DNA from: an uncultured Mageeibacillus sp.
GTDB lineage: Bacteria; Bacillota; Clostridia; Saccharofermentanales; Saccharofermentanaceae
Reading direction: 5' to 3'
Assembly (NCBI GenBank): GCA_964617375.1
Contig: CAZTXQ010000004.1
Span: 34,546-98,545 of the forward strand
Length of the DNA stretch: 64,000 nucleotides
Below, in pieces: positions 5,524 to 43,495 of the stretch. How positions within the stretch are numbered: the first letter of the stretch is position 1; each line of letters begins with the position of its first letter. A model generated the notes under the pieces. That model did not search any database, had not been told where the DNA came from, and saw only the letters and a list, made by a program, of their open reading frames with translations. Both the position numbers and the translations under genes were made by a program.

Positions 5524-5907
5524 TCACGGCGTATCCGGCCGGTTCTTCTCCCTGTATTTTTCGATCTGATCCCGGTCTTCGATTTCCAGTTCTTTTGTGC
5601 CGCCCATAGACTCCAGGTGGTGGCGGAATTCATGCTTTAAGGTGTGTACAATCCGTTCCCGGAGAAGATTCTCATCGAGATTCCCGTACGTTCGTATAAA
5701 ACTGCCGTAGTATATGGCGATATTCCGTCCCATAACAGAATCATAGTGATACTCACCAAGAATATAGAGATCGCCATGTACGGCCTCAGGATGTATTTTC
5801 CATTCCGGAAGCAGCCGGATACCGCCATTTAAATCGTCAAAAAAGTCGGGCGGCATTTCGTCTGCCGCCTCGCTTAAGATTCTATTAAACTCGGCGAGGG
5901 AAATCAT
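5524..5907 (-). CDS. zincin-like metallopeptidase-fold protein (DUF1025-like)
   Basis: 127 aa with an HEFRHH (HExxH-type) motif near the C-terminus. It overlaps the upstream HD-GYP gene by 23 nt. Confidence 0.55.
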   Translation of the reverse strand: MISLAEFNRILSEAADEMPPDFFDDLNGGIRLLPEWKIHPEAVHGDLYILGEYHYDSVMGRNIAIYYGSFIRTYGNLDENLLRERIVHTLKHEFRHHLESMGGTKELEIEDRDQIEKYREKNRPDTP

Positions 5908-7453
5908 ACGACTCGGAGCTCTCTTTCGTAAAATCGATCGGGGGTACGGTATTATCCAGACTCTCCATCTCTTTCATGATCGTATCCATCTGATCGACGA
6001 CCACCCGTATAAATATCTCGACCACTTCCTGGTCAAACTGAACTCCGGCACCGCGAATTAACTGCTCACGGGCATGGGATATGTCCAGCTTCGAACGGTA
6101 TCGGCGATTGGATGTCATTGCGTCAAACGCGTCCGAAACGGACAGGATTTTCGCGAGAAACGGAATCTGGTCTCCCTTGATGCCTTCGGGATATCCGGTG
6201 CCGTTCACCCATTCATGATGATAAAGGACAAGCGGAACCACCCCCGTGAACATAGAGAGCGCCGACAGTATATGGGCGCCTTTCAGGGGATGCTTTTTGA
6301 TGATATCGTACTCATCCGAAGTAAGCTTCACACTCTTCTTCAGTATATCGTCGGCCGTTCCGATTTTTCCGATATCGTGGAAGATACCGGCCGTTCTCAG
6401 CAATTCCAGTTCATCCTCGGTCAAGCCAATGGCCTCTCCGACCTTTTGCGAAAAGAAAGCGACCCGGTCTGAGTGTCCGCAGGTATATTCGTCCTTCGCG
6501 TCAACCGTCAGGCGCAGCGCCTCGATGGTATCGACGTACGTCTTCTTCAGATCCGAATAGGTTCTTAACAGCTCCTCGTTCTTCGTGTTTACCAGCGAAT
6601 GCAGGAAGGCGTTGTTCAGAGCGGAAGCCGCCTGATTCGCATAGATCTCCAGAAGCTTAAGCTCGGATTCGAACTCCGTGCTCTCGATATAAATCACACC
6701 CAGAGTCTGCTTGTATTCATTGATCAGCGGGAAAATAACGCCTGTTTCCAGCTTCTCGATTTTCCGGTTCGTACGGGCATATCCGATCTTCTCCATCAGT
6801 TCCGGATCGAGAAGCGGTACAAAGTCCTCGATGCTTGTGTTGTAAATGCCGATGCCCTTGAAAATACTCTTGTGATTGTTGTCGAGGCTTTCCGTACCGT
6901 CAACAAGAATGAATGCGTTTTTGCTGTTTACAAATCGCATGACCTCGATCAGTATGCCTTCGAGAATACTGCCGATTGGCTGAAGCTGATAGATCTTCGG
7001 TACTGCTTCAAGAATCTTGTTAAGACCGTCCTGAAAGCGCTTAATCGTACGGACCTGCATAATGGATTTAATGGCTGACTCGACAAGAAGAATAAGCTGA
7101 TCAAATTTGTCGCTCTTCTCACAGTATCCCTGGATTTCAAGTGCCCGGATTGTTTCAAGAGGCGGAGCCATATCTTTATATCCTGTGAGAAGCAGGATAT
7201 AGAGTTCCTGATTGAATTCCCGGATTTTGGCGACCACTTTATCACCGTTGATCGGTTCCATCATGAAATCCAGGATAAGAAGATCGTAATGCTCCGCACG
7301 AATCAACTCGATGGCATCGAGTGGCGAAGTTATTCCCTTAACATAATACCCGCTGCGGCCCAATACGACCGACAATGAATCGATAATCCCTGTCTCGTCA
7401 TCCAGGACAAGAATCTTGTATTGGGACAGTGTCTCCGGTTTCTTCCTTCTCAT
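5885..7453 (-). CDS. response regulator with REC, central GAF-like and HD-GYP (c-di-GMP phosphodiesterase) domains
   Basis: The N-terminal REC domain reads ILVLDDE...DLLILDFMMP-like...K. The C-terminal domain has HDIGKIG and HHEWVNGTGYP motifs. Confidence 0.85.
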   Translation of the reverse strand: MRRKKPETLSQYKILVLDDETGIIDSLSVVLGRSGYYVKGITSPLDAIELIRAEHYDLLILDFMMEPINGDKVVAKIREFNQELYILLLTGYKDMAPPLETIRALEIQGYCEKSDKFDQLILLVESAIKSIMQVRTIKRFQDGLNKILEAVPKIYQLQPIGSILEGILIEVMRFVNSKNAFILVDGTESLDNNHKSIFKGIGIYNTSIEDFVPLLDPELMEKIGYARTNRKIEKLETGVIFPLINEYKQTLGVIYIESTEFESELKLLEIYANQAASALNNAFLHSLVNTKNEELLRTYSDLKKTYVDTIEALRLTVDAKDEYTCGHSDRVAFFSQKVGEAIGLTEDELELLRTAGIFHDIGKIGTADDILKKSVKLTSDEYDIIKKHPLKGAHILSALSMFTGVVPLVLYHHEWVNGTGYPEGIKGDQIPFLAKILSVSDAFDAMTSNRRYRSKLDISHAREQLIRGAGVQFDQEVVEIFIRVVVDQMDTIMKEMESLDNTVPPIDFTKESSESYDFPRRV

Positions 7454-7471
7454 TGATGTCCTCCCGCAAAT

Positions 7472-9283
7472 TTATGCAAACGGAATTAATATATAAAACG
7501 TCGTACCCGAACCTTCCACCGATTCAAACCACATGTCTCCGCCAAACTTACCTACGATATTCGAATACGACATATAAAGTCCAAGTCCTGTGCCCTGTTT
7601 CGCTTTCGTCGTAATCATTTCTTTAAACAATTTCTGTTTTACTTCATCCTTCATGCCACATCCGTAATCACGAACCGACAGCAATAACTTACCCTTGTCA
7701 TTGGTCAGAATCAGATCAACAGTCCCCTCCTTGCCTTCATACGCATCGATGGCATTGTTGATCAAATTATTCACAATTTGGACAAGACTGTTCACTTCCC
7801 CCTTTATCATAGTCGATTTTTCCATTTCACAAACTACATTTAGTTTACAACCATATTTTTTTAGTTCGTGATTCATCAAAATATCGATTCTTTTTAAGAG
7901 TTCATTGATTTCAAACTGATCGGTAGTCGTTGCCGTCAGCTGTACGGCCTGCCCCTTAACCGTAGAGATAATGTCCGACATATAAGCGCAGTACTGATTG
8001 ATTTTCTCGGTCCATCCGCGCATTTCCCGCGTAATTTCATGATAATCCTCTCTGTCAACCTGCGGGTCATCTACGGAGTCATCTATCTCCCTGATCAAAT
8101 CCATAAGACCTTCGACGGCACCGGAGACCGACATAATCGGAGTTTTCAGGTTATGCGCAATTCCTCCGACCATTTGTCCCAGACTTGCCAGATGCTCCCT
8201 CTCGATCAGTTGCGTCTGCGTATGTTTGACTAATTCAAAAGACTTCTTCAGATCGGTTATATCCTTAATAAGTATAATCATTCCGTCATATCTTTTGTCT
8301 TTAATGATCGGTGTTATTTCAATAGAAAAGATAACGTCGATATCCTTATACTGCATCTCTTCTTCGCAGAACGCGGATTTCTTATCCATCCCGGCCTGAA
8401 TGAACGCTGTTTTTAATGGTTCAAGCCGGTCCGGCGCATACTTTTCTATCTGTTCGATAAAAGTCCAGATTCCGGTTTTTCGTTTGATGTCGACAAATCC
8501 GGAAAAATGGGTGATAAACGCCTTATTGTAATCCACAATGCTGTGATCGCTGTTCAGAACGAGATAACTGTCAGAAATGTGGTCGACAATCGTTTGGACC
8601 GCAATAGGGAGTACATTCAGAAAGTCGTATTTTATAATGGCAAGGGCAAAGCAGATTGCAGCAACCGTAAAGGAAATGGGTTCAAAGTACATGGAAAAGG
8701 TGGCAATCTTCGTCACAAAGGCGAGATCCACCGTGAGTGGAACGACGATCCCGATCGCTATCAGAACGGACTGTCTGGAAAAGAAACCCGCATTCTTAAT
8801 CGAAAAGAAAATCAGATAGAACAAACCGATCAGTATGAGCGGATATGCATAAAGAGACTGAAGATTGTGAAGCGGCCCGCTTAGCAATTCACTGTTGATC
8901 AGCGAATAATTTTTGAAATACAACCGATGATAGTCGTTGGTCCAGATGGCCGCCATGTTGAGGATCGGGAAAATGAGTGTCAGATAATTCAGTCGATTGA
9001 TCTTTTCGCCGGCCGAAAACGATCGACCCAGAAGATATACAAACACGGAGACAAATCCGACCGCCGAGAAATAAACATTGGTAAAAAACATGCCCTCGTA
9101 GTGAAACAGAGAAACGGCATACGATTCCGTCAGCATACCCGTGCACCAGCTGAAGATGCTTGCGATCAGCGCGATCGAAATGATATGAATCTCTCTTTTC
9201 CGGTGCATTCCGACAATCATGAAAAGTGTAATTCCGGTTGTCAAAGCCGAAATATGCAGCAGAACAAATGCCAAATCCTCCAT
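7472..9283 (-). CDS. sensor histidine kinase with an N-terminal 7TM module, a PAS-like domain, an H-box and an HATPase_c domain
   Basis: About seven hydrophobic helices fill the first roughly 220 aa. The H-box is GGIAHNLKTPI. The ATPase N/G boxes are NLINNAIDA, RDYGCGM and GTGLGL. Confidence 0.85.
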   Translation of the reverse strand: MEDLAFVLLHISALTTGITLFMIVGMHRKREIHIISIALIASIFSWCTGMLTESYAVSLFHYEGMFFTNVYFSAVGFVSVFVYLLGRSFSAGEKINRLNYLTLIFPILNMAAIWTNDYHRLYFKNYSLINSELLSGPLHNLQSLYAYPLILIGLFYLIFFSIKNAGFFSRQSVLIAIGIVVPLTVDLAFVTKIATFSMYFEPISFTVAAICFALAIIKYDFLNVLPIAVQTIVDHISDSYLVLNSDHSIVDYNKAFITHFSGFVDIKRKTGIWTFIEQIEKYAPDRLEPLKTAFIQAGMDKKSAFCEEEMQYKDIDVIFSIEITPIIKDKRYDGMIILIKDITDLKKSFELVKHTQTQLIEREHLASLGQMVGGIAHNLKTPIMSVSGAVEGLMDLIREIDDSVDDPQVDREDYHEITREMRGWTEKINQYCAYMSDIISTVKGQAVQLTATTTDQFEINELLKRIDILMNHELKKYGCKLNVVCEMEKSTMIKGEVNSLVQIVNNLINNAIDAYEGKEGTVDLILTNDKGKLLLSVRDYGCGMKDEVKQKLFKEMITTKAKQGTGLGLYMSYSNIVGKFGGDMWFESVEGSGTTFYILIPFA

Positions 9284-9327
9284 TTAAGGGCCTCCTCCCG
9301 AGCTGATTGTCCCTTTGCGGGACCGGT

Positions 9328-12300
9328 TTATCGTTCCTTTTCCGCGAGTACCGCCGACATGATACCGACAAGTTCCTCCGCATGCGTATTGATGAAGTAA
9401 TGCTCGGCTCCCGGTATGACATGAAGCTTCACATCCTCCGAATAGCTTAGCCAGTTTCTATAACGCGTCGCATAACGGCCGGTCACGCGATCTTGATCAC
9501 CCGCTATAAAACAGATCCCTGTCTTAAGGCGCGGCGAAGGACCTGTCCGGAGACCGTGCAGGTACCGGTAGAACAATCTTGCATCATGCCGGAAAGCTTT
9601 AATCACAAACGCCAGACTGTCCGCATCGTACGAGTTCTTCGGAAGGCCGATGCGCATCAGATAATCCAGGATCTGCTTGTCGGAGGAGAACATCCAGGGA
9701 TCGAAGAATCCGCCGTAAATCCCGACATATCTCGGAGGGTAAGTACCGCCGGCAAAGATACCCGCGATCGCAATCCCGGCATTTTCGAGCAGATGCGCCA
9801 GTGCGAGCATCGGTGCGCATCCCACACAGTGCCCGTAGAGTACGACTTCCGGGGGATTCATCCGGACGATCTCATCAAAAATAAGCTGCGCGGTCGCTTC
9901 GGCTGTCAGGAATACCGGATCGGCACCTGTATCATGGCCGGACAGGTTTACCGCATACAGGGAATACCCCGGCAATACGGGACGTGCCGCGTCGGACATA
10001 TTCCGGTAAGAGAGAACGGTGCCTCCGCCGTAGGGGAAACAGATTACCGGGATTTTCCCCGTCCGGGTTCCGGATGAGAGTCTCACAAGAACCGGGTTCT
10101 CTTCCTCTTCCCCGCTGTCAATAAGCGCGGCCAGTTCGCGTATGGTAGGGTTCTTATACAGATCGACAAGCGTAGCCGCATATCCGTTATCGGGCAGTTT
10201 TGAGATGAATTTGACCGCCTTTAAGGATTCGCCGCCGATCGCGAAAAAATCATCGTCGAGACCGATGTCCTCTGTCTCAAGAACCTCCGACCACAAGCTG
10301 TACAGCAATTTCTCGGTATCACTTTCCGGTGCGGAGTATTTTCGCTCGGGCCGAATCGCTTCTTCAAAACCGGGCAGCATCGCCTTGTCTATTTTGCCGT
10401 TCCGGTTCAGCGGGATCTCCGGTATGCGAATAAAGTAGGCCGGAATCATATATGTGGGCAGGCTCACGGACAGGAAGCTTTTGAGCTCTTCGTATCCGAT
10501 CCCTGTATCTGATGTGAAATACGCGTAAAGCTGCTTTTCGCCGTATCGATCGGCGCGCGGATATACAAAAACTTCACGTATTTTCGCGTGCTTCAGGAGT
10601 TCCGATTCAATTTCGCCAAGTTCGATTCTGTAACCCCGGATCTTAAGCTGATTGTCGATTCGGCCGAGATACTCAAGGTCACCCGATTCCAGAACTCTGG
10701 CCAGGTCACCCGAGCGGTACATCCGTTCTTTTTCGACAAACGGATTCGGACAGAATTTGACCTGCGTAAGCTCCGGATTATTGAGATATCCGCGGCCTAA
10801 CCCCGCGCCGCTTACACAGAGTTCTCCCGGCACTCCGACCGGGACGAGGTTCAACTCTTTGTCGACAACAAATGTCTTAAGAGTCGGGATCGGCACTCCG
10901 ATGTTTCCGGTATTCGACAGAATTTCCCGGTCCCCGATTTCTTTAACGGTAACGTGAACCGTCGTCTCCGTAATGCCGTACATGTTGATCAGCCTGGTTT
11001 CCGGATATCGGTCGCGAAAAAGCTTAAGAAGTCTCGGGCGCAGGGCGTCGCCGCCAAAAATCACATACCGAAGCGAAAGTCCTGCGTCTTTTGAGGATTC
11101 TTCGTCGATCAGGTTGTAAAAGGCGGCCGGAGTCTGATTCAGGACCGTCACCTTCTCCCGTATCAGAAGATCAATAAACTCACGTGTGTCTCTCGTTTTT
11201 GTTTTTGGAACAAGGACAAGACGCCCGCCCCTTAAAAGTGCCCCGTACATCTCCCACACCGAGAAATCAAAACAGAACGAATGAAACATCGTCCATACGT
11301 CGTTCTCCGAAAATTCGAACGGGAATCGGCTGTTAAACAGAAGTCTCACGACATTTCTGTGTTCGATCATGACACCTTTGGGTTTGCCGGTAGAGCCGGA
11401 CGTATAGATGATATAGGCCAGGTTGCCGGGGGCATGTTCTCCTCTTCTGACCGGCGATACCGGCGAATACACGGCTATATCCTCCGGACGGATGCACTCG
11501 GTGATCGGGAGAAATCTCTCCGGAAACGGTCCGGCTGCCAGAAATGCCTTAGCACGGCTGTCTTCCAGAAGATAGGCCGTCCGTTCAACCGGCGCATCGG
11601 GATCAATCGGAAGATACGCCGCGCCTGCTTTCAGAATTCCCAGAATTCCGACGATCATTTCAAAGGACGGTGCAAGGGATATCGCGACAATATCGTCCGC
11701 CTCCACGCCCCTGTCAAGCAGCATGCCGGCGAACGCATCCGATCTTTCGGCGAGTTCTCTGTAGGTCATGGAGCTCTCCCCCATGGTAAGCGCCGTTCTT
11801 TCCGGGTACGACGTAACGCATGCATCGAATATCGAATCAATCGTCTCATCGTCCGGGAAAGAAGCGTCCGTATCGGAAAAACCGGTTATCAGAGAAGCTT
11901 TCTCTTCCTGGGACAGCAATGGGATTTTTCCGATCGCAATCTGATCGTCCGCCAGCACAGCGTGCAGAACATTCCGATAATGCGACAGAAAACGGTCTAT
12001 CGTATTTTCCGAGAAGAGATCTGTGCTGTATTCCGCGCCGATCCGGATCCCGTCCGGCGTGACATCCGCTTCAAGGGTCAGATCGAATTTCGTCGTACCG
12101 GTATCGATTATTCCCGGCGCAAATTCAAGCTTATCCGCCTTCATAAGCGAGATGTCCATGTTCTGAAGAACGAAGCACGTATCAAACAGGGGATTCCGGC
12201 TTAAATCTCTGGTCGGATACACTTTCTCGACCAGACGTTCCACAGGATAATCCTGATTCTCGTAAGCTCCGATTAAGTCGGATCTCACTTCGTCAAGAAA

Positions 12301-15300
12301 AGCGGCAAACGTCTTATCCCATGCCGGATTACTCCGTACGGCAAGCGTGTTAACGAACATACCGATCAAATCAAGAGTGTCGGGATGCCGTCTTCCCACA
12401 ATGGGGATACCGACGACGATATCATCCTGTCCCGAATAGCGGGACAGAAGAACATGGAAAGCCGCATACAGCACCATAAAAATCGTCGCGCGCGCATGCG
12501 CCGCCATATCCTTTATTCCGGATACAGTCTCCGGATTGAGACTTATCGACGTCCGCGAACCCCGGAAGGATTTCCGTGAAGGCCGCGCATGATCCGTCGG
12601 CAGATTAAGGACGGGCACTTCGCCTTTAAATCTCCCGAGCCAGTATTCCTCTTCCCGTTTCAGATCGCCGGCTGAGAGCCGCGCGTTCTGCCAGGCCGAA
12701 TAATCCTTATATTGGTTTCTGATTTCGGGAAGCTCGCCTCCCGAATAGAGAGCCGCAAATTCACGCTCCAGAATATTCACCGACTCACCGTCGGAAATAA
12801 TGTGGTGCATATCGATAAGAAGGACGTGTCTCTCGGCTCCGAGTGTTATGAGTTCCGCGCGTAAAAGAGGCGCGGTCCCGAGATCGAACGGCCGGACAAA
12901 TTCTTTCATTATGAACGGTAATTCCTTCTCGTCCGCCTGACGTTCGGGAATACGGAATGCCGCCTGCGGGTTAACGATCTGCACGGGAACGCCGTCGATG
13001 AGCAAAAATGAAGTCCTCAGGGACTCGTGCCGGTCAATTATTTTCGCAAAGGCTTCGGAAAGTGCCGGAACAGACAGAGGTCCCTTGATTTCGACAGCCG
13101 CGGGGAGATTATAGTTAATTCCCTCACCGTCAATCTGCCTAAGGAGAAAGAGGCGTTTCTGAGACGGCGAAACATCATAGGAAGAGGCCTCGGGAACCGG
13201 CAGAATCGACTGTCTGCCCGGCACGCCCGTTTCATCTATTTTCTTGCCGATTTTTCGCACGGTTCTTAACTGAAAGATATCGCTGATTCCGATTTCCGCA
13301 CCGAATCTTTTCTGAATCGCCACGGAAAGAGAGATCACTTTGAGCGAATCGCCTCCGAGATCAAAAAAGTCCTCGTCAACGCCGATCACCGATATTTCCA
13401 GAATCTTTGTCCAGATCTCAAGAAGAACCGCTTCGGTTCCGGTTTCCGGTGCCGTAACCTGCGTTTTGACCGTATCTTCAAAACAGGGTTCGGGAAGTGC
13501 TTTCCGGTCCGCCTTTCCGTTTGGCGAAAGCGGGATATTTTTCATATACATAAAGATGGCCGGAACCATATAATCGGGAAGCCCGGATGACAGATGCGAT
13601 TTTAAAGACGAAACATCCAGCTCTTTATCGGAAGTATAGTAGGCGCAAAGATACGTCGAATCCTTGTGCGATTTCGCCGTTACCACGCTGCTCAGAACTT
13701 TGGGATGTGCCGACAGCCGGTTCTCGATTTCGCCGAGCTCGATCCGGAAACCGCGGATCTTAATCTGAAAATCAAGACGCCCGAGATACTCGATATCCCC
13801 TTTCGGATACCAGCGTGCCTTGTCACCCGTTTTGTACATGATTTGACCCGGAAAGAAAGGATCCGGAAGAAAACGTTCCGCCGTAAGCGTCGGATTATTG
13901 ATATATCCGCGCGCGACGCAGATCCCGCTGATATAGAGTTCACCCGGAATCCCGACCGGCAGGAGCTTGTGGTTCTTGTCCAGGATATACAGGCGCACAT
14001 TGTCAATCGGCCTTCCGATCGGAACATTTTTTAAGTTTACGCGCGGAGAACAGTCAAAGTACGACACATCCACGGCAGCCTCCGTCGGACCGTACAAGTT
14101 ATACAGCTGCGCGCCGCATCGATCATACAAGTTCCGGTTGAAACGCTCCGTCTGACGGAGCGTCAGCGCCTCACCGCTCGCGAAAACCTGTTTCAGCGAC
14201 ATGAGCTTTCCGGTCATATCCTTCTCCGTGACATAATCCAGAAATGCGCCGAGCATGGAAGGCACAAAGTGCATCGTTGTCACCTTGTTCTTATCGATCG
14301 CATCCGCGATCACCTGAGGGTCTTTTTCACCGCCCGGCTCGAGCATCAGAACGCCGGACCCCGTGAAAGTCCACCAGAAAAGCTCCCATACGGATACATC
14401 AAAGGTGAACGGCGTTTTCTGCATAATCAGGTCTTCGGGATGAATGGGGTATTTTTTCTGCATCCAGTTGATGCGGTTGACGATGCTTCTGTGCCGGATC
14501 ATAACGCCCTTGGGTTTGCCGGTTGATCCCGATGTATAAATCACATAGGCGAGATCGTCGGGTCCGCTCATGCATTCGGGATTTGAAATGTCTCCGCGAT
14601 ACAGTTCCGGATCTTCCAGATACAGAACTTCGGCTCCCGGATCGGCAAGCTTTGAGGAAAGTGCGGTCTGCGTAAGAAGAAGGGTCGCTCCGCTGTCCCC
14701 GATGATATAGCGAATGCGATCTGCCGGATAATTCGGATCGATCGGAAGATACGCGCCGCCGGCTTTGAGGATAGCCTGAACCGCAATGATCATTTCAAAG
14801 GAACGGTAAACCGAGAGAGCGACAATTCGGTCTGGTCCGATGCCCTTTTCGATCAGACAGCGTGCCAGTTGATTTGACTTCTCGTTCAGCTCACGGTACG
14901 TCATCACGCGTCCGTTTGAGATTACCGCGCGCGCATCCGGGGTTTGGGAAGCCTGCTCATACAGGAATTCATGAAGTGTTTTCTCGTACGGATAATCAGC
15001 GGTCGTGCGGTTAAAATCGACAAGAATCTGCTGTTTCTCTTTCTCGGAAAGCATCTCCAGCCGCCCGATCGCTCTTTCCGGATTGTCGAGCGCATGCCAA
15101 AGGATATTGATCACATGCCGGTTGAGACTCTCTATCTCATTAATATGGTAAATTTCCGTCAGAAAATCGTAATTCAGTACAAAGCGGCCTTCGTCGTCGC
15201 GGTCATTCACATGAATGATGAGAGACTCGACCTGTTGTCCCGTGAAATGCCAGCGGCTCTTGACTACCTCTCCGAATTGAGTCGATTCGAACTTCGAATT

Positions 15301-16380
15301 CTGATAATTCAGAACAATATCATAGAGCCTGTGCGGGAGATTGTGATTTCTCTTCAAGTCTTTGAGAAGATAATTGTAAGGATACTTCTGATGGCGCAGA
15401 ATATTCATATTCTCGCGGCTCATCATTTCGGAAAACTCCGAAAAGTTCTTGGCATCGATCATCCGGACGCGGACCGGCGCGGCAACACTGACGAACATAC
15501 CGGATGTCTCTTTCTCGCGTGCATTGATCCGGTTCAGGATCGTAGTCCCGAGAATAATGTCGTCATTTCCCGTTACTCGATGAATATATATGCAAAGTGC
15601 CGCCATAAAAAGAGTAAACGGAGATTTATTATTTCGCGAGCAGTAGTCACGTATCTTATCCGACAAGACCTGGGGAATGATAAAGGACTTTCGCGCCGAC
15701 ATAATGCTCTCCGTCGTAAGCGCCTGAGGTTTCAGGACGGTCGGCTCCGGAAAGGAAGCAAATTTCCCGTTCCAGTATTCCCGGTCTTTCAAGAATCGCT
15801 CCGAGGACTCATAGGCCATCTCGTTTTTTAAGTGCTCGAAAAAAGACGGCTTCGGCGCATCTTCATACGGAAGATTCCTGCGCAGCGCGGCATAATAGGC
15901 GGTTATCTGATTCCCTATTACGGACATATTCCAGGCATCCGAGATAATATGGTGCAGCTTGACGAGCACCCCGCCGTTACTGTCGTCAATTTTAATCACA
16001 GTAAAAGAGAACAAATCCGAATCATACAAAGGAAAAGGCCGCTGCGTTTCCTTGACATCCCATGCGTACAGGGATTCAAGACCAGTCGTACTAAAATCAA
16101 AATAATCCAATTCCTTCTCTTCGAACGAAGATGCATACTGCAGGGGTTCTCCATTTTCCTCATGAATCCGTATACGAAGACCTTCGTTGTTCTTGATAAC
16201 AAGTATGACGGCCTTCCGCAAGGCATCATAATCAATCGTTCCCACGTAACGAATGGTTCCGGATATAATGTTCATATACGTTCCGGGATACTTCTGCTCA
16301 AGATACCAGATCGACTTCTGCGGCTGCGATAACTCGTAAAAAACCTTATCCATATACTCTTGTTTCCCTTCGAAAGGCAT
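9328..16380 (-). CDS. bimodular non-ribosomal peptide synthetase, C-A(Ser)-T-C-A(Thr)-T-TE
   Basis: Domain map in aa and approximate nt: C1 10-445 (15046-16353, HHIISDAW); A1 470-965 (13486-14973; LAYVIYTSGSTGKPKG, YKTGD, GRLDFQIKIRG); T1 975-1045 (GGDS, Ser1012 at 13345-13347); C2 1062-1495 (HHIISDGE); A2 1515-2005 (10366-11838); T2 2015-2085 (GGES); TE 2095-2350 (9331-10098). An alternative start is MDKV at 16353. Confidence 0.95.
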   Translation of the reverse strand: MPFEGKQEYMDKVFYELSQPQKSIWYLEQKYPGTYMNIISGTIRYVGTIDYDALRKAVILVIKNNEGLRIRIHEENGEPLQYASSFEEKELDYFDFSTTGLESLYAWDVKETQRPFPLYDSDLFSFTVIKIDDSNGGVLVKLHHIISDAWNMSVIGNQITAYYAALRRNLPYEDAPKPSFFEHLKNEMAYESSERFLKDREYWNGKFASFPEPTVLKPQALTTESIMSARKSFIIPQVLSDKIRDYCSRNNKSPFTLFMAALCIYIHRVTGNDDIILGTTILNRINAREKETSGMFVSVAAPVRVRMIDAKNFSEFSEMMSRENMNILRHQKYPYNYLLKDLKRNHNLPHRLYDIVLNYQNSKFESTQFGEVVKSRWHFTGQQVESLIIHVNDRDDEGRFVLNYDFLTEIYHINEIESLNRHVINILWHALDNPERAIGRLEMLSEKEKQQILVDFNRTTADYPYEKTLHEFLYEQASQTPDARAVISNGRVMTYRELNEKSNQLARCLIEKGIGPDRIVALSVYRSFEMIIAVQAILKAGGAYLPIDPNYPADRIRYIIGDSGATLLLTQTALSSKLADPGAEVLYLEDPELYRGDISNPECMSGPDDLAYVIYTSGSTGKPKGVMIRHRSIVNRINWMQKKYPIHPEDLIMQKTPFTFDVSVWELFWWTFTGSGVLMLEPGGEKDPQVIADAIDKNKVTTMHFVPSMLGAFLDYVTEKDMTGKLMSLKQVFASGEALTLRQTERFNRNLYDRCGAQLYNLYGPTEAAVDVSYFDCSPRVNLKNVPIGRPIDNVRLYILDKNHKLLPVGIPGELYISGICVARGYINNPTLTAERFLPDPFFPGQIMYKTGDKARWYPKGDIEYLGRLDFQIKIRGFRIELGEIENRLSAHPKVLSSVVTAKSHKDSTYLCAYYTSDKELDVSSLKSHLSSGLPDYMVPAIFMYMKNIPLSPNGKADRKALPEPCFEDTVKTQVTAPETGTEAVLLEIWTKILEISVIGVDEDFFDLGGDSLKVISLSVAIQKRFGAEIGISDIFQLRTVRKIGKKIDETGVPGRQSILPVPEASSYDVSPSQKRLFLLRQIDGEGINYNLPAAVEIKGPLSVPALSEAFAKIIDRHESLRTSFLLIDGVPVQIVNPQAAFRIPERQADEKELPFIMKEFVRPFDLGTAPLLRAELITLGAERHVLLIDMHHIISDGESVNILEREFAALYSGGELPEIRNQYKDYSAWQNARLSAGDLKREEEYWLGRFKGEVPVLNLPTDHARPSRKSFRGSRTSISLNPETVSGIKDMAAHARATIFMVLYAAFHVLLSRYSGQDDIVVGIPIVGRRHPDTLDLIGMFVNTLAVRSNPAWDKTFAAFLDEVRSDLIGAYENQDYPVERLVEKVYPTRDLSRNPLFDTCFVLQNMDISLMKADKLEFAPGIIDTGTTKFDLTLEADVTPDGIRIGAEYSTDLFSENTIDRFLSHYRNVLHAVLADDQIAIGKIPLLSQEEKASLITGFSDTDASFPDDETIDSIFDACVTSYPERTALTMGESSMTYRELAERSDAFAGMLLDRGVEADDIVAISLAPSFEMIVGILGILKAGAAYLPIDPDAPVERTAYLLEDSRAKAFLAAGPFPERFLPITECIRPEDIAVYSPVSPVRRGEHAPGNLAYIIYTSGSTGKPKGVMIEHRNVVRLLFNSRFPFEFSENDVWTMFHSFCFDFSVWEMYGALLRGGRLVLVPKTKTRDTREFIDLLIREKVTVLNQTPAAFYNLIDEESSKDAGLSLRYVIFGGDALRPRLLKLFRDRYPETRLINMYGITETTVHVTVKEIGDREILSNTGNIGVPIPTLKTFVVDKELNLVPVGVPGELCVSGAGLGRGYLNNPELTQVKFCPNPFVEKERMYRSGDLARVLESGDLEYLGRIDNQLKIRGYRIELGEIESELLKHAKIREVFVYPRADRYGEKQLYAYFTSDTGIGYEELKSFLSVSLPTYMIPAYFIRIPEIPLNRNGKIDKAMLPGFEEAIRPERKYSAPESDTEKLLYSLWSEVLETEDIGLDDDFFAIGGESLKAVKFISKLPDNGYAATLVDLYKNPTIRELAALIDSGEEEENPVLVRLSSGTRTGKIPVICFPYGGGTVLSYRNMSDAARPVLPGYSLYAVNLSGHDTGADPVFLTAEATAQLIFDEIVRMNPPEVVLYGHCVGCAPMLALAHLLENAGIAIAGIFAGGTYPPRYVGIYGGFFDPWMFSSDKQILDYLMRIGLPKNSYDADSLAFVIKAFRHDARLFYRYLHGLRTGPSPRLKTGICFIAGDQDRVTGRYATRYRNWLSYSEDVKLHVIPGAEHYFINTHAEELVGIMSAVLAEKER
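9826..9828 (-). other. TGT codon for Cys2185 at the thioesterase nucleophile-elbow position (GHCVG instead of GxSxG)
   Basis: The minus strand reads ctc tac ggg cac tgt gtg gga tgc gca, which is LYGHCVGCA. The surrounding context is FPYGGG...GHCVG...GDQD...GAEHY, the order expected for an alpha/beta-hydrolase TE with Asp and His partners. Confidence 0.7.
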
Positions 16381-17017
16381 TTTCTAAAAAAGAGTCTTCG
16401 CTGACCGTCGTAAGATGTCTGATTTCGTCCGCATTTTCCGAACAGCAACTGATGAAATAATCTCCCTCTCTTATCGTCTGCAGCATGCCTTTAATATCCG
16501 GTTTAAAGATACCCGGGTCCGCCAGAACCTCCGCCCATCCCTTCCCAAGCCATTTCAGGTAGGCTTCCTTCCGGGTCCAGATCTCAAAGAAGCGGGCACG
16601 CGTGTCACCCTCTCCGGTAAAGACATAGTTATACTCGCGGTCCGTAAAAACTTTACGGGCGATATCTTTATCCGGGGGGCCGGTCTTCTCGACATCCACG
16701 CCGACATCCCTGTCGCCGAATGCGACAGCAATCGCGCTTCTTGTATGAGACACACTAAAATACAGAGAAGGCTGGTATTGCAAGAACGGCTTGCCGTATG
16801 AATTCCGTATGAATATTAAATCCCGATTCTGAATAGACAATTTCTCGCACAGCAGATGCCGGAGAAATATGTCCGAATATAGAAGGAGCTTCCGGTCTAT
16901 ATCGGCGCGCATCGATTCAATCTGCTTTATTCTCCGTTCGGGAAGAAGCGGCAGAAAATGTTCGGTGACTTCGGGGTCATAACGACAGCTCGTTTCCAAA
17001 AAATACAAATGAATCAT
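16346..17017 (-). CDS. Sfp-type 4'-phosphopantetheinyl transferase
   Basis: 223 aa with FSVSHTRSAIAVAF, GVDVEK and WTRKEAYLKWLGKG motifs. Its stop codon is 4 nt from, or overlapping, the NRPS start. Confidence 0.85.
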   Translation of the reverse strand: MIHLYFLETSCRYDPEVTEHFLPLLPERRIKQIESMRADIDRKLLLYSDIFLRHLLCEKLSIQNRDLIFIRNSYGKPFLQYQPSLYFSVSHTRSAIAVAFGDRDVGVDVEKTGPPDKDIARKVFTDREYNYVFTGEGDTRARFFEIWTRKEAYLKWLGKGWAEVLADPGIFKPDIKGMLQTIREGDYFISCCSENADEIRHLTTVSEDSFLENAFRRETRVYG

Positions 17018-18614: not shown

Positions 18615-18705
18615 TTTTTGAAAAGGGCAACCTGCACCAAAGTGCAGAAACGCAAAGTCTGGAATCTAAAGGTTCTCCCATGATTGTCCGACTGCCGATT
18701 AGTAT
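18615..18705 (+). promoter_or_regulatory. candidate c-di-GMP-I (GEMM-I) riboswitch aptamer in the leader of the surface-protein gene
   Basis: The sequence is AAAAGGGCAA-CCUGCAC-CAAA-GUGCAG-AAACGCAAAGUC-UGGA...UCCGAC-UGCCGAUUAG. It matches the GGCAAAC / hairpin / ACGCAAAGC / second hairpin / CCGAU layout remembered from Vc2 and Cd1. Boundaries are approximate. Confidence 0.5.
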
Positions 18706-18859: not shown

Positions 18860-21769
18860 ATGAACCGATCATCTATTCACGTATCTTTTTCTTTCAAAGC
18901 CATTCGAAAACAACTCTATCTGTTGCTGGCTATGTTATTCCTTCTCTCGAATATTCCGTTTACGGTAGCCGCCGGCGCAGAGGATGCTCCTCATTCCGAA
19001 ACAGCCATTGCCGCCCATAGTGCGGAAAGCCTCCGCTGGAGTTCGCCGCTTCTCTTCAAAGATAATGAAGTCGATCCGGCGACCTTGAACGGCGGACCGT
19101 TACTGACGCTCACCAAACTTACCAACGGAGCGGACGGAAGCTTTATTCCGGCCGGATCAGAAGTAACATGGACGTATACCGCAACAAACTGCGGCATTGT
19201 TGATCTGTATCACGTAATCATAACGGATTCGAATCTCGGCTTTATAGGTATAATCCCTACTCTTCCCGTTGGCGCTTCAGAGACGCTCACCAGGATCGGA
19301 ACCGCAATTTCCGGACCTTATGCAAACATGGGTTATGCGCAAGGTTTCTTCTCCTTGGGAGGGGAACCGCTTCCGCCGGAATCCTTTGATCCATGCTGTC
19401 TCCCGCCTGTTATACTTCCAACCTTTGCGTTTGACGGAAGTTGCTACTTTGGTTCTGAACCTTCGATCGCAATCGACAAAACAACCAATGATTTCGACGG
19501 ACAGTATATCCTGACCGGCGATGCCATTACCTGGTCCTACAAAGTAACCAATACCGGAAACGTAACTTTGACCAATGTCCGGGTTGACGACTCCGTTGCG
19601 GGACCTGTCGGAACAATCGCCTCTCTTGCTCCCGGGGAGTCGCAAACGCTGACTCTTGCGGGAACTGCCATTGCAGGTGCATATAAAAACACAGGAATCG
19701 CTGTCGGAACGCCTCCTGTCGGCGAAGAAGTAAATTCGAGCGACGACAGCGGTTATTACGGAATTCATCCTTCGCTCTCCATCAGTAAATTAACAAATGG
19801 TGCCGATGCGGCGAAGATTCTCGTCGGAGATCCGATTGAGTGGACTTATGACGTTACCAACGACGGCAATGTCGATTTGGTATCCATTACGGTAACCGAT
19901 TCCGACCCGGCAATCGGTGTAGTCGGAACGATCGACAGTCTGCTTGTCGGCCAGACAGCAACCCTGAGCCGCATGGGAACAGCGACGGCGGGCGCTTATG
20001 CCAATACAGGCACAGCAACCTGCGAATACTCGCTCGAGCAAGGCAGTATTGATTTGATGTGTATCGAAACGCCTCCCGACTGTACTCCGGCTCCTACCGG
20101 TACTCCTCAACCGATCCAAACAACGGTATCGGCCAGTGACGACAGCAGCTACTTCGGAGTTTCGCCCGCAATCACTATGTCGAAAACAACGAACGGGACC
20201 GACGGTTCCATGATTCTCAAAGGCAGTCCGATTGTCTGGACATACACGGTCACCAATACGGGCAACAGCGTACTTACGAATGTTACCGTTACAGATTCCG
20301 ATCCTGCGATCGGAGAAGTCGGTACCATCGCGACGCTCGCTCCCGGCGAGACACAATCACTCACGGCTAACGGAACGGCCGGAACCGGAGCTTACGATAA
20401 CACAGGATCGGTTCACGGTACGCCGGAAGCCGGCGCAGACGTAACAGCCGCGGATTCGAGCTCGTATTTCGGAGCCGATCCGGTCGTTGGCATATCAAAA
20501 ACCACCAATGATCTTGACACAGGCAGCTTCCCCGTCGGCACAGCGCTTACATGGAAGTATACGATCAGCAATCTTGGAAACATCGAAATTGTAAATATTA
20601 AAATTACGGATTCGATGGAGGGCGATGTCGGCACGATTCCCTCGCTCGCTCCCGGCGAAACGGCAGCACTTACACTCACCGGAACAGCCGTTGCCGGAGC
20701 CTATACGAACACCGGAACGGCGACTGCAAATTATGAATTGCTTCCTGCTCCCTCCTCGGTCCAAAGCATGAATCTCTTACTGAACGGCGAGGAAGGAAAT
20801 CAGGTAACCGCGTCCGATGACAGCAGCTATTTCGGCTATACGGCGAGTCTTTCTGTGAATAAAACCACAAACGGCGGAGACGGAATTACGCTGGACGTAG
20901 GTGACACAATTACCTGGTCGTACGAAGTAACGAATACCGGAAACGTAACGGTCACGAACATTACGGTAACGGACTCGGATCCTGATATCGGTCAGGTAGG
21001 TACGATCGCATCTCTTGCTCCCGGAGAATCCCAGACGTTAACCGCGTCCGGAACTGCGGAGGCAGGCGATTACAGCAACACCGGAACCGTGAGCGGTCAA
21101 CCGGTTGCTGCCGATGATTCTGCAATCGGAGATGTCATTACAGCTTCCGATGCCAGCAGCTACTTCGGTTCCGGACCGGCGATTGACATCGCCAAGACGG
21201 TTCAGAATATCACCACGGCAGGAGCTGCCGGAAAGACAGCGACCGGCGCACCGGGTGACGATTTCAAATTCACTCTTGTCGTAAAGAATACCGGAAATAA
21301 AGATCTTTCTCAGATCCTGATTACGGACAGCAAGGCCGCAGTCGGTTCTGCGGTAACGGTAGACGGTACGCCGAAGAACTGGGCATCGGGCGCCGGCGGA
21401 ATTGCCACGCTGGAGCTGACAGGCCTTGCCGCGGGAGCGAGTTCAACGATCACCTACACACTTGACACCGCAGCGGGTGATGGAACGCTGATCATGCTGA
21501 ACGTAGCGACGGTTTCCGCAATGGATCTTTCAACGGAGAAACAGGTCGAAGATACGGATGTCGCAACACTATCGACGTCATCGGTACTCGGAGCCGTACG
21601 GTCTACACCGACACCGACACCGAATTCGTCGAGTGTTCTCGGAGCAGCCCGAACCGGTGAAGCCTTCGGGTTTGCGGATTGGATCGGAACGCTGTTCCTG
21701 CTCGCGGCAGCCGGCCTTACACTTCGACTTGTGATTCGTAAAGAAGAGAAGTCGATGCATAACAAATAA
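18860..21769 (+). CDS. secreted surface protein with seven DUF11-like (conserved repeat domain) modules and a C-terminal membrane anchor or sorting tail
   Basis: The RBS is gagtggagg. There is a signal peptide. The recurring module is K(T)TNG.DG..(I)..G..I.W.Y.VTNTGNV.L.N(I)TVTDS...G.VGTI.SLAPGE(S/T)..LT..GTA..G.Y.NTG. The C-terminus has a TM helix followed by RKEEK. Confidence 0.85.
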   Translation: MNRSSIHVSFSFKAIRKQLYLLLAMLFLLSNIPFTVAAGAEDAPHSETAIAAHSAESLRWSSPLLFKDNEVDPATLNGGPLLTLTKLTNGADGSFIPAGSEVTWTYTATNCGIVDLYHVIITDSNLGFIGIIPTLPVGASETLTRIGTAISGPYANMGYAQGFFSLGGEPLPPESFDPCCLPPVILPTFAFDGSCYFGSEPSIAIDKTTNDFDGQYILTGDAITWSYKVTNTGNVTLTNVRVDDSVAGPVGTIASLAPGESQTLTLAGTAIAGAYKNTGIAVGTPPVGEEVNSSDDSGYYGIHPSLSISKLTNGADAAKILVGDPIEWTYDVTNDGNVDLVSITVTDSDPAIGVVGTIDSLLVGQTATLSRMGTATAGAYANTGTATCEYSLEQGSIDLMCIETPPDCTPAPTGTPQPIQTTVSASDDSSYFGVSPAITMSKTTNGTDGSMILKGSPIVWTYTVTNTGNSVLTNVTVTDSDPAIGEVGTIATLAPGETQSLTANGTAGTGAYDNTGSVHGTPEAGADVTAADSSSYFGADPVVGISKTTNDLDTGSFPVGTALTWKYTISNLGNIEIVNIKITDSMEGDVGTIPSLAPGETAALTLTGTAVAGAYTNTGTATANYELLPAPSSVQSMNLLLNGEEGNQVTASDDSSYFGYTASLSVNKTTNGGDGITLDVGDTITWSYEVTNTGNVTVTNITVTDSDPDIGQVGTIASLAPGESQTLTASGTAEAGDYSNTGTVSGQPVAADDSAIGDVITASDASSYFGSGPAIDIAKTVQNITTAGAAGKTATGAPGDDFKFTLVVKNTGNKDLSQILITDSKAAVGSAVTVDGTPKNWASGAGGIATLELTGLAAGASSTITYTLDTAAGDGTLIMLNVATVSAMDLSTEKQVEDTDVATLSTSSVLGAVRSTPTPTPNSSSVLGAARTGEAFGFADWIGTLFLLAAAGLTLRLVIRKEEKSMHNK
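19103..21469 (+). repeat. seven in-frame tandem domain repeats of about 105-130 aa each inside the surface-protein gene
   Basis: The repeats start near LTKLTNGADGS, IAIDKTTNDFDG, LSISKLTNGADA, ITMSKTTNGTDG, VGISKTTNDLDT, LSVNKTTNGGDG and IDIAKTVQNITT. Divergence shows mainly at the DNA level, while the protein motif is retained. Confidence 0.8.
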
Positions 21770-24148: not shown

Positions 24149-25732
24149 CTAGACTTTATCCGTAGTTTCCTGATCGGACGAATCTTTCATCCGGTCATCA
24201 TAGATCACGACTCTGTTGCGCCCGGTCTGCTTCGCACGATAGAGCGCACGGTCCGCGCGTCTGTAAAAGGCTGAAAAGGACTCGCCCGGAGCTCTTTCGG
24301 CCACGCCCAGGCTGGCGGTAATCCGGCCCGCCTGAGGGTGTTCTTTCTCTTCGATCCGCTTCCGGATCTTCTCGGCAGCTTCCGCCGCACCGAGGATGTC
24401 GGTCTTCGGAAGGAGAATCTCGAATTCTTCGCCGCCGAGGCGTACGAGCACGTCAGCCTTTCTGATACACTCCCCGATAATGTTTGCCGTTTGGACAAGT
24501 ACCTCGTCTCCGACCGGATGTCCGTATTTGTCGTTTACCCTCTTGAAATAGTCAATATCAATCGTTATCAGGGATAAGGTTTCCTGATAACGGTCGGAAT
24601 GGTACATCGCTTTATCCATAACCGAATCAAGATACCTTCTGTTCTTTAATCCTGTCAAAGGATCCGTCAGCGAAATTTCGCGAATCTGATTCTCGGCTCT
24701 CTTACGGAATTCCACCTCCCTGAACGCGAGGAACAGGAGTATTGCGATGATAAAAATCGGAATGGAGCGGATCAACGCATCAAGCAGAATGGTGCCTCTC
24801 GGTTCTATGATGTAGAGTGTCCAAGGAGCGTCGCTGAAAGTCATCTTATACACGAAGTGATCGCCGATGATCTGAACTCTGTTGTCAGCGGTGTTGCCCA
24901 GGCCCTTTATATCGCTTTCGGACAAGTCGTCAATGTCAGAAAGTTTCCTGATTTCGGTATTTTCGGAAAGATTTCCGTCCGCAATAATCGTACCGTACGG
25001 AGTGACCAGATATCCCTGATAGTCCGTCGCGAGAAACCGGTCCAGGCGGTTCGTGTCAAGATCAATCGAAACGACTCCCATAAAGAGATTCTCCTGATAT
25101 AAAGGATTCGAGATTGTAACTATCAAACCTTTCCCGGCAGCATCCAGATACACATCCGTCCAGACAGCACTTCGGGAAGGATTGTTCGCGGGAGTTGCGA
25201 CCGAATAGAAAGTGACATCCCGAAGACCGTCGTAATACGCGAAATCCTTCGACTCTATATAGGGATACATCATGATAAAATCAAATTCACTCGTGTAATA
25301 AATCCAGGCGAGATCCGGATAACGGCCATAGAATCCCTTGAAGAAATCGTTCAGGTTGAGAGCGAGATTCAGACTCTCCTTCGCCGCTCCTATGGTCGGG
25401 ACGGTTCCCGCTCCGGTAAGATTGCCGACCGGAGAACCGAAAATCGCGCCGTTCAGTCCATCGAGGGAATACATGTTTTTCCCGGAATCATATACGAGTT
25501 TGCCCGCAAGGAACGGCTCGTCTTCATTCTTCGAGGCGAAGTATTTCTCCCCGTAAATCGAAAGCCCGCTGATGATAAAATTCGCGGGTCGTATCGCATC
25601 TCCGATGTCCAGCTGTTCCCGTTTCGCCGTTTCGGCGAAATCATTGAGCACGGCTATATAGTTGACGGCAAAAGACGCCAGAATCAGCGCGATTGAAAGA
25701 ACAAACTTGAATGCCCTGCTTAAGCTTCTCAT
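24149..25732 (-). CDS. diguanylate cyclase with an extracytoplasmic Cache-like sensor (TM-Cache-TM-GGDEF)
   Basis: The layout is an N-terminal TM helix, a roughly 280-aa periplasmic-type domain, a second TM helix, then a GGDEF domain with an intact GGEEF active site and an RKAD I-site five residues upstream. Confidence 0.85.
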   Translation of the reverse strand: MRSLSRAFKFVLSIALILASFAVNYIAVLNDFAETAKREQLDIGDAIRPANFIISGLSIYGEKYFASKNEDEPFLAGKLVYDSGKNMYSLDGLNGAIFGSPVGNLTGAGTVPTIGAAKESLNLALNLNDFFKGFYGRYPDLAWIYYTSEFDFIMMYPYIESKDFAYYDGLRDVTFYSVATPANNPSRSAVWTDVYLDAAGKGLIVTISNPLYQENLFMGVVSIDLDTNRLDRFLATDYQGYLVTPYGTIIADGNLSENTEIRKLSDIDDLSESDIKGLGNTADNRVQIIGDHFVYKMTFSDAPWTLYIIEPRGTILLDALIRSIPIFIIAILLFLAFREVEFRKRAENQIREISLTDPLTGLKNRRYLDSVMDKAMYHSDRYQETLSLITIDIDYFKRVNDKYGHPVGDEVLVQTANIIGECIRKADVLVRLGGEEFEILLPKTDILGAAEAAEKIRKRIEEKEHPQAGRITASLGVAERAPGESFSAFYRRADRALYRAKQTGRNRVVIYDDRMKDSSDQETTDKV

Positions 25733-43163: not shown

Positions 43164-43194
43164 TGTCCTGAATGAACCGATGCACAGATGCGCG

Positions 43195-43360
43195 AAAGCG
43201 CCGGCGCCCGACCAAGGTGCCGAGGGAACACGGATGAGATTTCCGGACTATCCCAGTAACCGTGAAGCGGACGAAACGGTATTTAAGTCACTGTCATAAC
43301 GACGGGAAGACGCCGGAGTAGGATGAAGCCAAGCCGGGAGACCTGTATGTGCATGATTTA
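43195..43360 (+). promoter_or_regulatory. cobalamin (B12) riboswitch aptamer
   Basis: It contains GGUGCCGAGGGAACACGG.UGAGAUUUCC, CCCAGUAACCGUGAAG, GUCACUG, GGGAAGAC and the B12-box AAGCCGGGAGACCUG (43330-43345), all in the canonical order. Boundaries are approximate. Confidence 0.8.
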
Positions 43361-43416
43361 CTCCTGGGGATGAGAATTATACATGCGCGCCATTTTTAGC
43401 GGCGTGCTGTTTTGTT

Positions 43417-43443
43417 GCTCCTCCGGTCGGGGGAGCTTTTTTT
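43417..43443 (+). terminator. intrinsic terminator acting as the riboswitch expression platform
   Basis: gctcctcc-ggtc-gggggagc forms 8 bp including one G-U pair, followed by T7. Confidence 0.75.
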
Positions 43444-43495
43444 GCTCCTTCACAAGCGGTTCATGACCCAATATTTTGAAGGAGGAACATTTCCC

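Follow-up and report, generated by a model that had tools for sequence, protein, structure and literature searches.

An ObiF-type cysteine thioesterase predicted to release a Ser-Thr beta-lactone from a clostridial nonribosomal peptide synthetase with conserved signalling partners

The DNA analyzed here, referred to as the window, is a stretch of 64,000 nucleotides from an uncultured Mageeibacillus sp. (contig CAZTXQ010000004.1, positions 34,546 to 98,545). On its minus strand the window contains a gene for a nonribosomal peptide synthetase (NRPS) with two modules of condensation (C), adenylation (A) and carrier (T) domains, and a terminal thioesterase (TE) with Cys in the place of the nucleophile (Table 1). 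The TE domain (Pfam PF00975 at residues 2111-2343, 50.4 bits) is fused to the end of the last carrier domain, T2, and forms the last 260 codons of the open reading frame (ORF), so that the protein ends with it. Genes for a 4'-phosphopantetheinyl transferase (PPTase), a sensor kinase with seven transmembrane helices (7TM) and a cyclic di-GMP (c-di-GMP) response regulator lie around the NRPS gene in the same orientation.

Table 1. Features of the NRPS operon and of its surroundings in the window.
Feature	Position	Strand	Basis and remarks
NRPS, 2350 aa, C-A(Ser)-T-C-A(Thr)-T-TE(Cys)	9328..16380	-	ORF, translation, Pfam, A-domain codes
Condensation domain C1, aa 1-450, motif HHIISDA	15031..16380	-	Pfam Condensation; HHxxxD at aa 143
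Adenylation domain A1, code DVWHFSLVDK (Ser)	13441..14973	-	Pfam, Stachelhaus code
Carrier domain T1, GGDS, Ser1012	13246..13428	-	Pfam, motif
Condensation domain C2, HHIISDG	11890..13182	-	Pfam, motif
Adenylation domain A2, code DFWNIGMVHK (Thr)	10393..11826	-	Pfam, Stachelhaus code
Carrier domain T2, GGES, Ser2052	10105..10317	-	Pfam, motif
ObiF-like Cys-TE, aa 2091-2350	9331..10110	-	Pfam PF00975, PDB sequence match, AlphaFold2/Foldseek
Codon TGT, Cys2185 (G-H-C-V-G), predicted acyl-accepting nucleophile	9826..9828	-	translation, ObiF1 alignment
Codon GAT, Asp2297 (GDQD), 'position II' triad Asp	9490..9492	-	aligned with ObiF1 Asp1254
Codon CAT, His2327 (GAEHYF)	9400..9402	-	aligned with ObiF1 His1284
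Sfp-type 4'-phosphopantetheinyl transferase	16346..17017	-	Pfam ACPS, AASDHPPT_N; overlaps NRPS start region by 35 nt
Sensor histidine kinase, 7TM-PAS-HisKA-HATPase	7472..9283	-	Pfam; begins 44 nt past NRPS stop
Response regulator REC-DUF3369-HD-GYP, predicted c-di-GMP phosphodiesterase	5885..7453	-	Pfam, NCBIfam, motifs; 18 nt past kinase gene
Terminator-like GC-rich hairpin and T run just after regulator gene	5849..5869	-	best-scoring such site in region
ORF of 291 aa	17222..18097		no Pfam or NCBIfam match
c-di-GMP-I riboswitch	18616..18699	+	RF01051, 56.6 bits; upstream of ORF 18860..21769
Repeat-rich surface protein, 969 aa	18860..21769	+	DUF7507, DUF11, CARDB
GGDEF diguanylate cyclase	24149..25732	-	
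GGDEF diguanylate cyclase	40173..41351	+	
Cobalamin riboswitch	43169..43364	+	RF00174, 75.1 bits; upstream of ORF 43412..44506

The initial annotation had placed the TE at positions 9331-10098, which indeed correspond to the TE domain, and all four peptide strings that it quoted (VICFPYGGG, VVLYGHCVGCAP, GDQD and GAEHYF) are present in the translation. Its codon for Cys2185 is also correct: the plus strand reads 'aca' at the position of the TGT, and the numbering follows from the gene start as (16380-9828)/3+1 = 2185.

When the TE was searched with phmmer against all PDB sequences, the best match was holo-ObiF1 (6n8e) with 119.9 bits and an E-value of 1.3e-33. The runners-up, at 43 bits or less (next E-value 1e-10), were type II TEs and an entry recognized as the SulM TE by the fold search. 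The alignment with ObiF1 includes only two gaps and pairs YGHCVG with YGHCAG, GDQD with GGQD, and AEHYF with GGHYF. Cys2185 is thus situated at the nucleophile elbow, opposite the catalytic Cys of ObiF1, as the initial annotation had read it, and the two other residues that it had proposed for the triad, Asp2297 of GDQD and His2327 of GAEHYF, align with Asp1254 and His1284. Gly2212 occupies the position of ObiF1 Gly1173. The triad of ObiF1 consists of Cys1146, His1284 and Asp1254, with Gly1173 where EntF-type TEs have Asp, and its C1146S mutant gives only the hydrolyzed acid (PMC6668435). Among the structurally characterized NRPS TEs, Asp at position II has been described only from ObiF1 and SulM, and type II TEs have it likewise (PMC11298585).

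The AlphaFold2 model of the TE, built from a shallow alignment of four sequences, shows alternating strands and helices (mean pLDDT 76, pTM 0.83). In the Foldseek search against the PDB with this model, ObiF1 (6n8e) was again ranked first (E-value 2e-17, about 32-33% identity), ranks 2-5 were all SulM TE, and these were followed by RifR, BorB, YbtT and RedJ. The comparison with ObiF, SulM and type II TEs that had been proposed in the initial annotation thus placed ObiF1 first by both sequence and fold and SulM second by fold. As far as the sequence can tell, the window TE has every feature of an ObiF-type Cys-TE.

The other candidate classes fit less well. The SulM TE (8w2c/8w2d), which forms the beta-lactam of sulfazecin, shares the Cys nucleophile and the position-II Asp and is the second-best fold match, but its identity to the window TE is only 19-20%, and it has Gln-Cys-Asn where the window TE has His-Cys-Val. 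The SulM type is characterized by this Gln-Cys-Asn motif, a positively charged pocket, a last A domain specific for 2,3-diaminopropionate and a sulfotransferase (PMC11298585). A SulM-type beta-lactam TE was rejected because of its motif, because A2 has a Thr code and no 2,3-diaminopropionate (Dap)-type A domain is present, and because Pfam scans found no neighboring sulfotransferase. The type II editing TEs (RifR, RedJ, BorB, SrfAD, YbtT) have the same sub-fold and Asp placement and form the next-best matches. This class was rejected as well, since type II TEs are free-standing and have a Ser nucleophile (GHSxG), whereas the window TE is fused and has Cys.

A word-indexed protein search with the TE gave three matches only. 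It was too insensitive and was replaced by a full HMMER search of 1.84 billion representative proteins, with a profile made of the window TE and its three nearest relatives. At an E-value of 1e-30 or better this search found 317 clusters at 50% identity. The nucleophile column of the 150 best homologues contains Cys in 149 and Ser in one, the aligned Asp and His are present in all those that cover these columns, and position I is Gly or Ala apart from a single sequence with Ser. As Cys is present in 149 of the 150 best homologues, it is, on this sequence evidence, a trait of a sizeable family and not a one-off substitution. The statement of the initial annotation that Cys-for-Ser TEs are rare should accordingly be qualified, the family including at least 317 clusters.

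Two of the 150 best matches, P0109 and P0120, share 50-55% identity with the ObiF1 TE and fall together with it in a rough neighbor-joining tree made without support values, so ObiF lies within the Cys-TE family. The family contains TE-terminal lineages like that of the window and a large lineage in which an MFS transporter follows the TE at the C-terminus of the same protein. The closest TE matches among the species representatives searched are 35-44% identical and come from metagenome-assembled genomes of Clostridia, Peptococcaceae and Oscillospiraceae and from Sporobacter termitidis; no near-identical genome was found among these representatives.

The transporter-fused lineage (L020-L050) combines C-A-T-TE(GHCxG)-MFS in a single polypeptide, an NRPS fused to an exporter with 12 transmembrane helices. 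Examples are L022 (Herpetosiphon aurantiacus, 6737-12190), L031 and L045, and the hosts include Herpetosiphon, Paenibacillus/Fontibacillus, Streptosporangium, Nonomuraea and Kitasatospora. A literature search for NRPS-MFS fusions found nothing relevant. The same type of Cys-TE also occurs in hybrids of polyketide synthase and NRPS (P0100 and P0137), in which an acyl carrier protein, a nitroreductase and a ketosynthase precede, with further domains in between, C-A(Ser)-T-Cys-TE.

The possibility that Cys2185 is a sequencing error or belongs to a decaying gene is practically nil. The last 1126 nt of the NRPS gene recur without any difference in a Logan assembly of run SRR8925824, and the JGI contig Ga0209467_1000209 (L052) from another metagenome has 96.8% DNA identity over 15.4 kb. 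In the TE of the latter 16 of the 260 residues are changed, but YGHCVGCAP, GDQD and GAEHYF are all kept. An error is excluded by these two sequences together with the Cys of 149 of the 150 homologues. Decay is also contradicted by the intact ORF and by the codon differences from the L052 variant, 144 of which are synonymous and 63 nonsynonymous (125 and 47 outside the TE, 19 and 16 inside it).

The ten Stachelhaus positions, anchored on the core motifs of the A domains, read DVWHFSLVDK in A1 and DFWNIGMVHK in A2, which we take to be a Ser code of the EntF type and the canonical code for Thr, respectively (Stachelhaus et al. 1999). At the level of prediction, the last module thus loads Thr, as had been annotated. 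Because the Pfam scan of the whole protein did not find an epimerase domain anywhere in the NRPS, the terminal residue predicted from the code should be L-Thr. Its configuration is L-threo, as in the obafluorin precursor. ObiF-type TEs act on an N-acyl L-threo-beta-hydroxy-alpha-aminoacyl thioester, and such a substrate is predicted also for the window TE, its N-acylation being deduced from the N-terminal C domain. By its position, C1, the HHxxxD motif of which is intact, is presumed to be a starter C domain that N-acylates Ser.

For the gene context and the A-domain codes of relatives, 50 genome loci were fetched by TE motifs, and 19 of these were from Clostridia/Bacillota and had a terminal TE. 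The motif patterns themselves contain Cys, and the scan is thus no measure of the Cys frequency. The last code before the Cys-TE was that of Thr in 12 and of Ser in five of the loci, covering all 17 Clostridial/Bacillota loci in which it was readable. The same loci have anything from no upstream module to three or more, with differing codes. Judged from the predicted codes, the feature conserved across the loci is the beta-hydroxyl of the terminal residue, and this is the simplest argument for taking that hydroxyl as the nucleophile. Also within the NRPS family defined by the kinase and regulator genes, the ObiF-like TE follows Thr or Ser in 17 of 17 cases, while a reductase (R) domain, an EntF-like TE and a 9e4s-like domain follow non-hydroxy codes, with four distinct types in all. 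In an unbiased set of TE-terminal representatives, a canonical Ser or Thr code was present in 29 of the 45 that were readable; the others had mostly unassigned codes, and one a Gly code.

Release of N-acyl-Ser-Thr as a beta-lactone, which the initial annotation had put forward, is the mechanism best supported by these data, and as a prediction it is considered somewhat probable. The operon of PPTase, NRPS, kinase and regulator genes would in this case provide a two-module assembly line in which C1, as its position suggests, would acylate Ser and C2 would couple Ser to L-Thr. The N-acyl-L-Ser-L-Thr chain would then move from the pantetheine of T2 to Cys2185 by an energy-neutral transthioesterification. 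His2327 and Asp2297, the latter at the RifR-like position II, would activate the beta-hydroxyl of Thr, and its attack on the enzyme thioester (4-exo-trig) would release the N-acyl-Ser-Thr beta-lactone, as ObiF does for obafluorin. The product would be an electrophile, perhaps an inhibitor of hydrolases or proteases or a short-lived signal, functionally coupled to the presumably co-transcribed 7TM kinase and HD-GYP regulator.

Several observations weigh against beta-lactone release. The window TE and that of ObiF1 share only about 33% of their residues, the AlphaFold2 model has low confidence in the lid loop (residues 125-136), and the triad is read from the alignment. The alignment also places a Ser in the window TE at ObiF1 Arg1190, the mutation of which decreases the activity of ObiF1 ten-fold (PMC6668435). 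Structurally, the Cys-TE family clusters with the hydrolytic type II TEs, and none of the members of the clade of the window TE has a known product. Members fused to an MFS transporter often end in the Asp-like code DLTKIAHVSK, some in Gly and others in Ser-type codes, and because members ending in Gly or Asp-like codes exist, on which a beta-lactone cannot be closed, Cys together with the position-II Asp is not sufficient for ring formation. The counts of co-occurrence with Thr and Ser are, moreover, not phylogenetically independent. Finally, among the PDB relatives of C1 the C domains of teixobactin, tyrocidine and RzmA (the starter C domain RzmA-Cs, 7c1h) score about equally and do not single out one C subtype.

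The resemblance to type II TEs bears on the possibility that the Cys-TE simply hydrolyzes the thioester. The linear product, N-acyl-Ser-Thr-OH, would then be a small lipopeptide or a signal that carries no warhead. The fold and the layout of the triad are those of the hydrolytic RifR, RedJ and BorB, thioesters and oxoesters are hydrolyzed about equally well, and for the members ending in Gly, which need another release route, hydrolysis would be the simplest one. However, Cys is not needed for hydrolysis and is still found in nearly all the relatives, and in ObiF1 it is the Cys-to-Ser mutant that represents the hydrolytic form. Hydrolysis would also leave unexplained why, in the Clostridial clade, the Cys-TE always comes with terminal Thr or Ser while the sister NRPSs, which have other release domains, have non-hydroxy ends. 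It is therefore considered unlikely.

The Cys-TE could also make another ester, either by oligomerization and cyclization through hydroxyls of Ser or Thr, as in enterobactin or serratamolide, or as a lactone closed onto the hydroxyl of Ser1 or of a hydroxylated acyl chain. EntF turns the same kind of N-acyl-Ser thioester into a trilactone, and the peptide of the window has two hydroxyls. Several of the relatives are single-module enzymes of the form C-A(Ser/Thr)-T-TE, and C-A-T-TE is the architecture of the serrawettin-type dimerizing synthetases. Yet the window TE matches ObiF1 far better than the oligomerizing TEs of EntF or Vlm2 type, which have a Ser nucleophile and Asp at position I, and in enzymes with one to four or more modules only the terminal beta-hydroxyl is conserved, which makes these esters quite improbable products.

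In a further alternative the acyl-S-Cys intermediate would be resolved by an external nucleophile, such as an amine, a thiol or another metabolite, to an amide or thioester conjugate. Thioesters are far more reactive in aminolysis than oxoesters, and the presence of Cys in the BulbE TE has been explained in this way. The same route would be open to the members that end in Gly. In the operon, however, neither an amine donor nor a partner enzyme is encoded by any conserved gene, the linkage to Thr and Ser would not be explained, and BulbE has its Asp at position I, unlike the window TE. Such a conjugation is thus very unlikely. The BulbE-type Cys-TE, an indolylamide macrocyclase, was also rejected as a class for the window TE, which has Gly at position I, after strand beta6, where BulbE has Asp.

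Beta-lactone release has its closest parallel in the ObiF/ObaI TE (6n8e) of Pseudomonas fluorescens and Burkholderia diffusa. This shares with the window TE the GxCxG elbow with its preceding His, the catalytic His, the position-II Asp and the position-I Gly. In both, the TE comes directly after a carrier domain with an N-acylated L-threo beta-hydroxy amino acid, in the window according to the prediction. The two differ in the surroundings of the TE: in the window it is truly C-terminal and lacks the MbtH-like domain and the downstream aryl A domain, and a starter C domain is found in place of the aryl-carrier donor of obafluorin. The substrate of the obafluorin TE is beta-OH-nitro-homoPhe, made by a transaldolase, while that of the window TE would be a proteinogenic Thr on a dipeptide. 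The window TE also has a clade-specific FFDPW lid motif and does not conserve ObiF1 Arg1190, its host belongs to the anaerobic Clostridia, unlike the hosts of ObiF, and its operon also encodes a kinase and an HD-GYP regulator. An orthologue of the obafluorin pathway (ObiF1/ObaI) was rejected, as there is no MbtH-like domain, aryl donor or transaldolase and the neighboring genes are those of the PPTase, the kinase and the regulator. The chemistry is predicted from ObiF, and what is new is the host group, the substrate class and the conserved signaling context.

The genes around the NRPS form a conserved unit. Orthologues of the PPTase gene are present upstream of the NRPS in L002, L005 and L015, and among the 19 Clostridial genome loci, 17 have orthologues of the kinase and regulator genes directly 3' of the NRPS; the MFS-fused lineage lacks these two genes. 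In the regulator the HD (IFHDIGK) and GYP (GTGYPEG) motifs are intact, and its best NCBIfam match is the NosR-family c-di-GMP phosphodiesterase with 197.7 bits, below the curated cut-off of 400. The hairpin after the regulator gene is the probable end of the operon, as judged from a consensus match only. Neither self-resistance nor tailoring genes were found near the NRPS, and the 291-aa ORF upstream is not conserved in the relatives. A further four loci or proteins (L010 88-1800, L012 5150-6880, L013 5141-6880 and protein P0007) have an N-terminal extension of about 560 aa with a PilZ domain, a receptor of c-di-GMP, before C-A(Ser)-T-Cys-TE. The PilZ scores are 18.8-31.3 bits against a cut-off of 22.5, which two of the four pass, and the fusion, as seen in the sequences, suggests direct control of the synthetase by c-di-GMP.

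In a reciprocal test, metagenome contigs were searched with the regulator. In every case in which a contig had a full-length kinase orthologue and sufficient upstream DNA and the upstream gene was examined, that gene was an NRPS. The alternative that the kinase-regulator pair also occurs without an NRPS was rejected, since the loci in question carry NRPSs with other release domains. The exceptions are L057 and L058, which have an orthologue of the regulator (74% identity) with no kinase or TE match upstream. Altogether the release domains of the operon family are the ObiF-like Cys-TE, an NAD-dependent reductase, an EntF/AB3403-like TE (GWCIG) and a domain matching 9e4s, which suggests a single operon family in which the release domain is exchanged so that different electrophiles result.

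The reductase-ending NRPSs were found with the same kinase-regulator pair after them on L063, L089 and L101-L126, which are metagenome contigs, many of them from the human gut. They have the structure C-A-T-R or A-T-C-A-T-R, with the codes DAFWLGGTFK and then DIYTVGIVLK. They resemble the published small Clostridial NRPSs of the gut for peptide aldehydes (ruminopeptin, the family of Guo et al. 2017) and occur in the same operon frame as the window NRPS, but differ from it in their NAD-dependent R release and non-hydroxy last residues. Reductase-terminated NRPSs of gut Clostridia have been reported to make protease-inhibiting peptide aldehydes (PMC12327764). The conserved two-component partner of the reductase-ending gut NRPSs may be new to the literature.

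Two further release domains occur in this operon frame. The EntF/AB3403-like TE of L067 (5280-6134) and L061 has the Cys elbow AGWCIGG and follows the non-hydroxy code DVFILAGVVK; its best PDB match is AB3403, in which the elbow is likewise GWCFGG. In L074 (4978-6162), L071 and L084, C-A-T is followed by a domain of 395 aa that has no Pfam match. This domain matches PDB entries 9e4s/9e4x (E-value 1e-75), labeled only 'amino acid adenylation domain protein'.

The window as a whole is rich in genes of c-di-GMP signaling. In addition to the regulator it contains two genes for GGDEF diguanylate cyclases, one with a Cache sensor domain, and a c-di-GMP-I riboswitch about 1.6 kb from the NRPS operon and divergent to it, upstream of the ORF for the surface protein. 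This riboswitch might read out the regulator locally, but since seven related loci do not conserve it, it was dropped as a part of the system. The cobalamin riboswitch lies farther away in the window.

The kinase and the HD-GYP regulator, which were absent from the initial annotation, bear on the role of the product. In the Rpf system of Xanthomonas, RpfF is the synthase, RpfC the sensor kinase and RpfG a REC-HD-GYP protein. The window follows a similar gene logic, with a small-molecule synthase beside a membrane sensor kinase and a REC-HD-GYP regulator. The synthase is, however, an NRPS where RpfF is a crotonase, the kinase is of the 7TM-PAS type where that of Rpf is a hybrid kinase, and sensing of the product by the window kinase is conjecture from the conserved synteny. 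In the literature that was searched, no description was found of an NRPS for a Thr or Ser (or Ser-Thr) beta-lactone, of a Clostridial beta-lactone, of the Clostridial clade of the window NRPS or of an NRPS-kinase-HD-GYP cassette. As for the compound class, SQ 26,517 is an acetyl-Ala-Thr beta-lactone from a Bacillus.

In a wider, speculative reading, which is rather unlikely as it stands, the NRPS, the 7TM kinase and the REC-HD-GYP regulator would form a widespread Clostridial circuit, present also in species of the human gut, in which a short-lived electrophilic acyl-peptide would serve as a self-signal read by the kinase and lead to a change in c-di-GMP. Within such a circuit the signal would be a beta-lactone here and an aldehyde in the versions with an R domain, and in some members the PilZ-fused NRPSs would close the loop. 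If the circuit were real, the N-acyl-amino-beta-lactone would be a Gram-positive, NRPS-made analogue of the acyl-homoserine lactones.

To our knowledge, ObiF is the only NRPS TE shown to form a beta-lactone, and its substrate is an exotic amino acid. The locus of the window and its relatives suggest that many uncultured anaerobes carry out the same chemistry on plain Thr and Ser. The relatives form a graded series from one to four or more modules, which includes the cultured Sporobacter termitidis DSM 10068 and Clostridium lacusfryxellense DSM 14205. Should the prediction of beta-lactone release hold, genomes could be mined for peptide beta-lactone warheads by a rule that combines an ObiF-like Cys-TE, the position-II Asp and Thr or Ser as the last residue. 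The enzyme would also be a compact biocatalyst for making N-acyl-Thr beta-lactones, which are a known class of hydrolase inhibitors. Release by the R domain as an aldehyde and by the Cys-TE as a beta-lactone would then interchange inside one operon family, and with its invariant linkage to a sensor kinase and a c-di-GMP phosphodiesterase, this family invites the question which purpose the reactive peptides serve.

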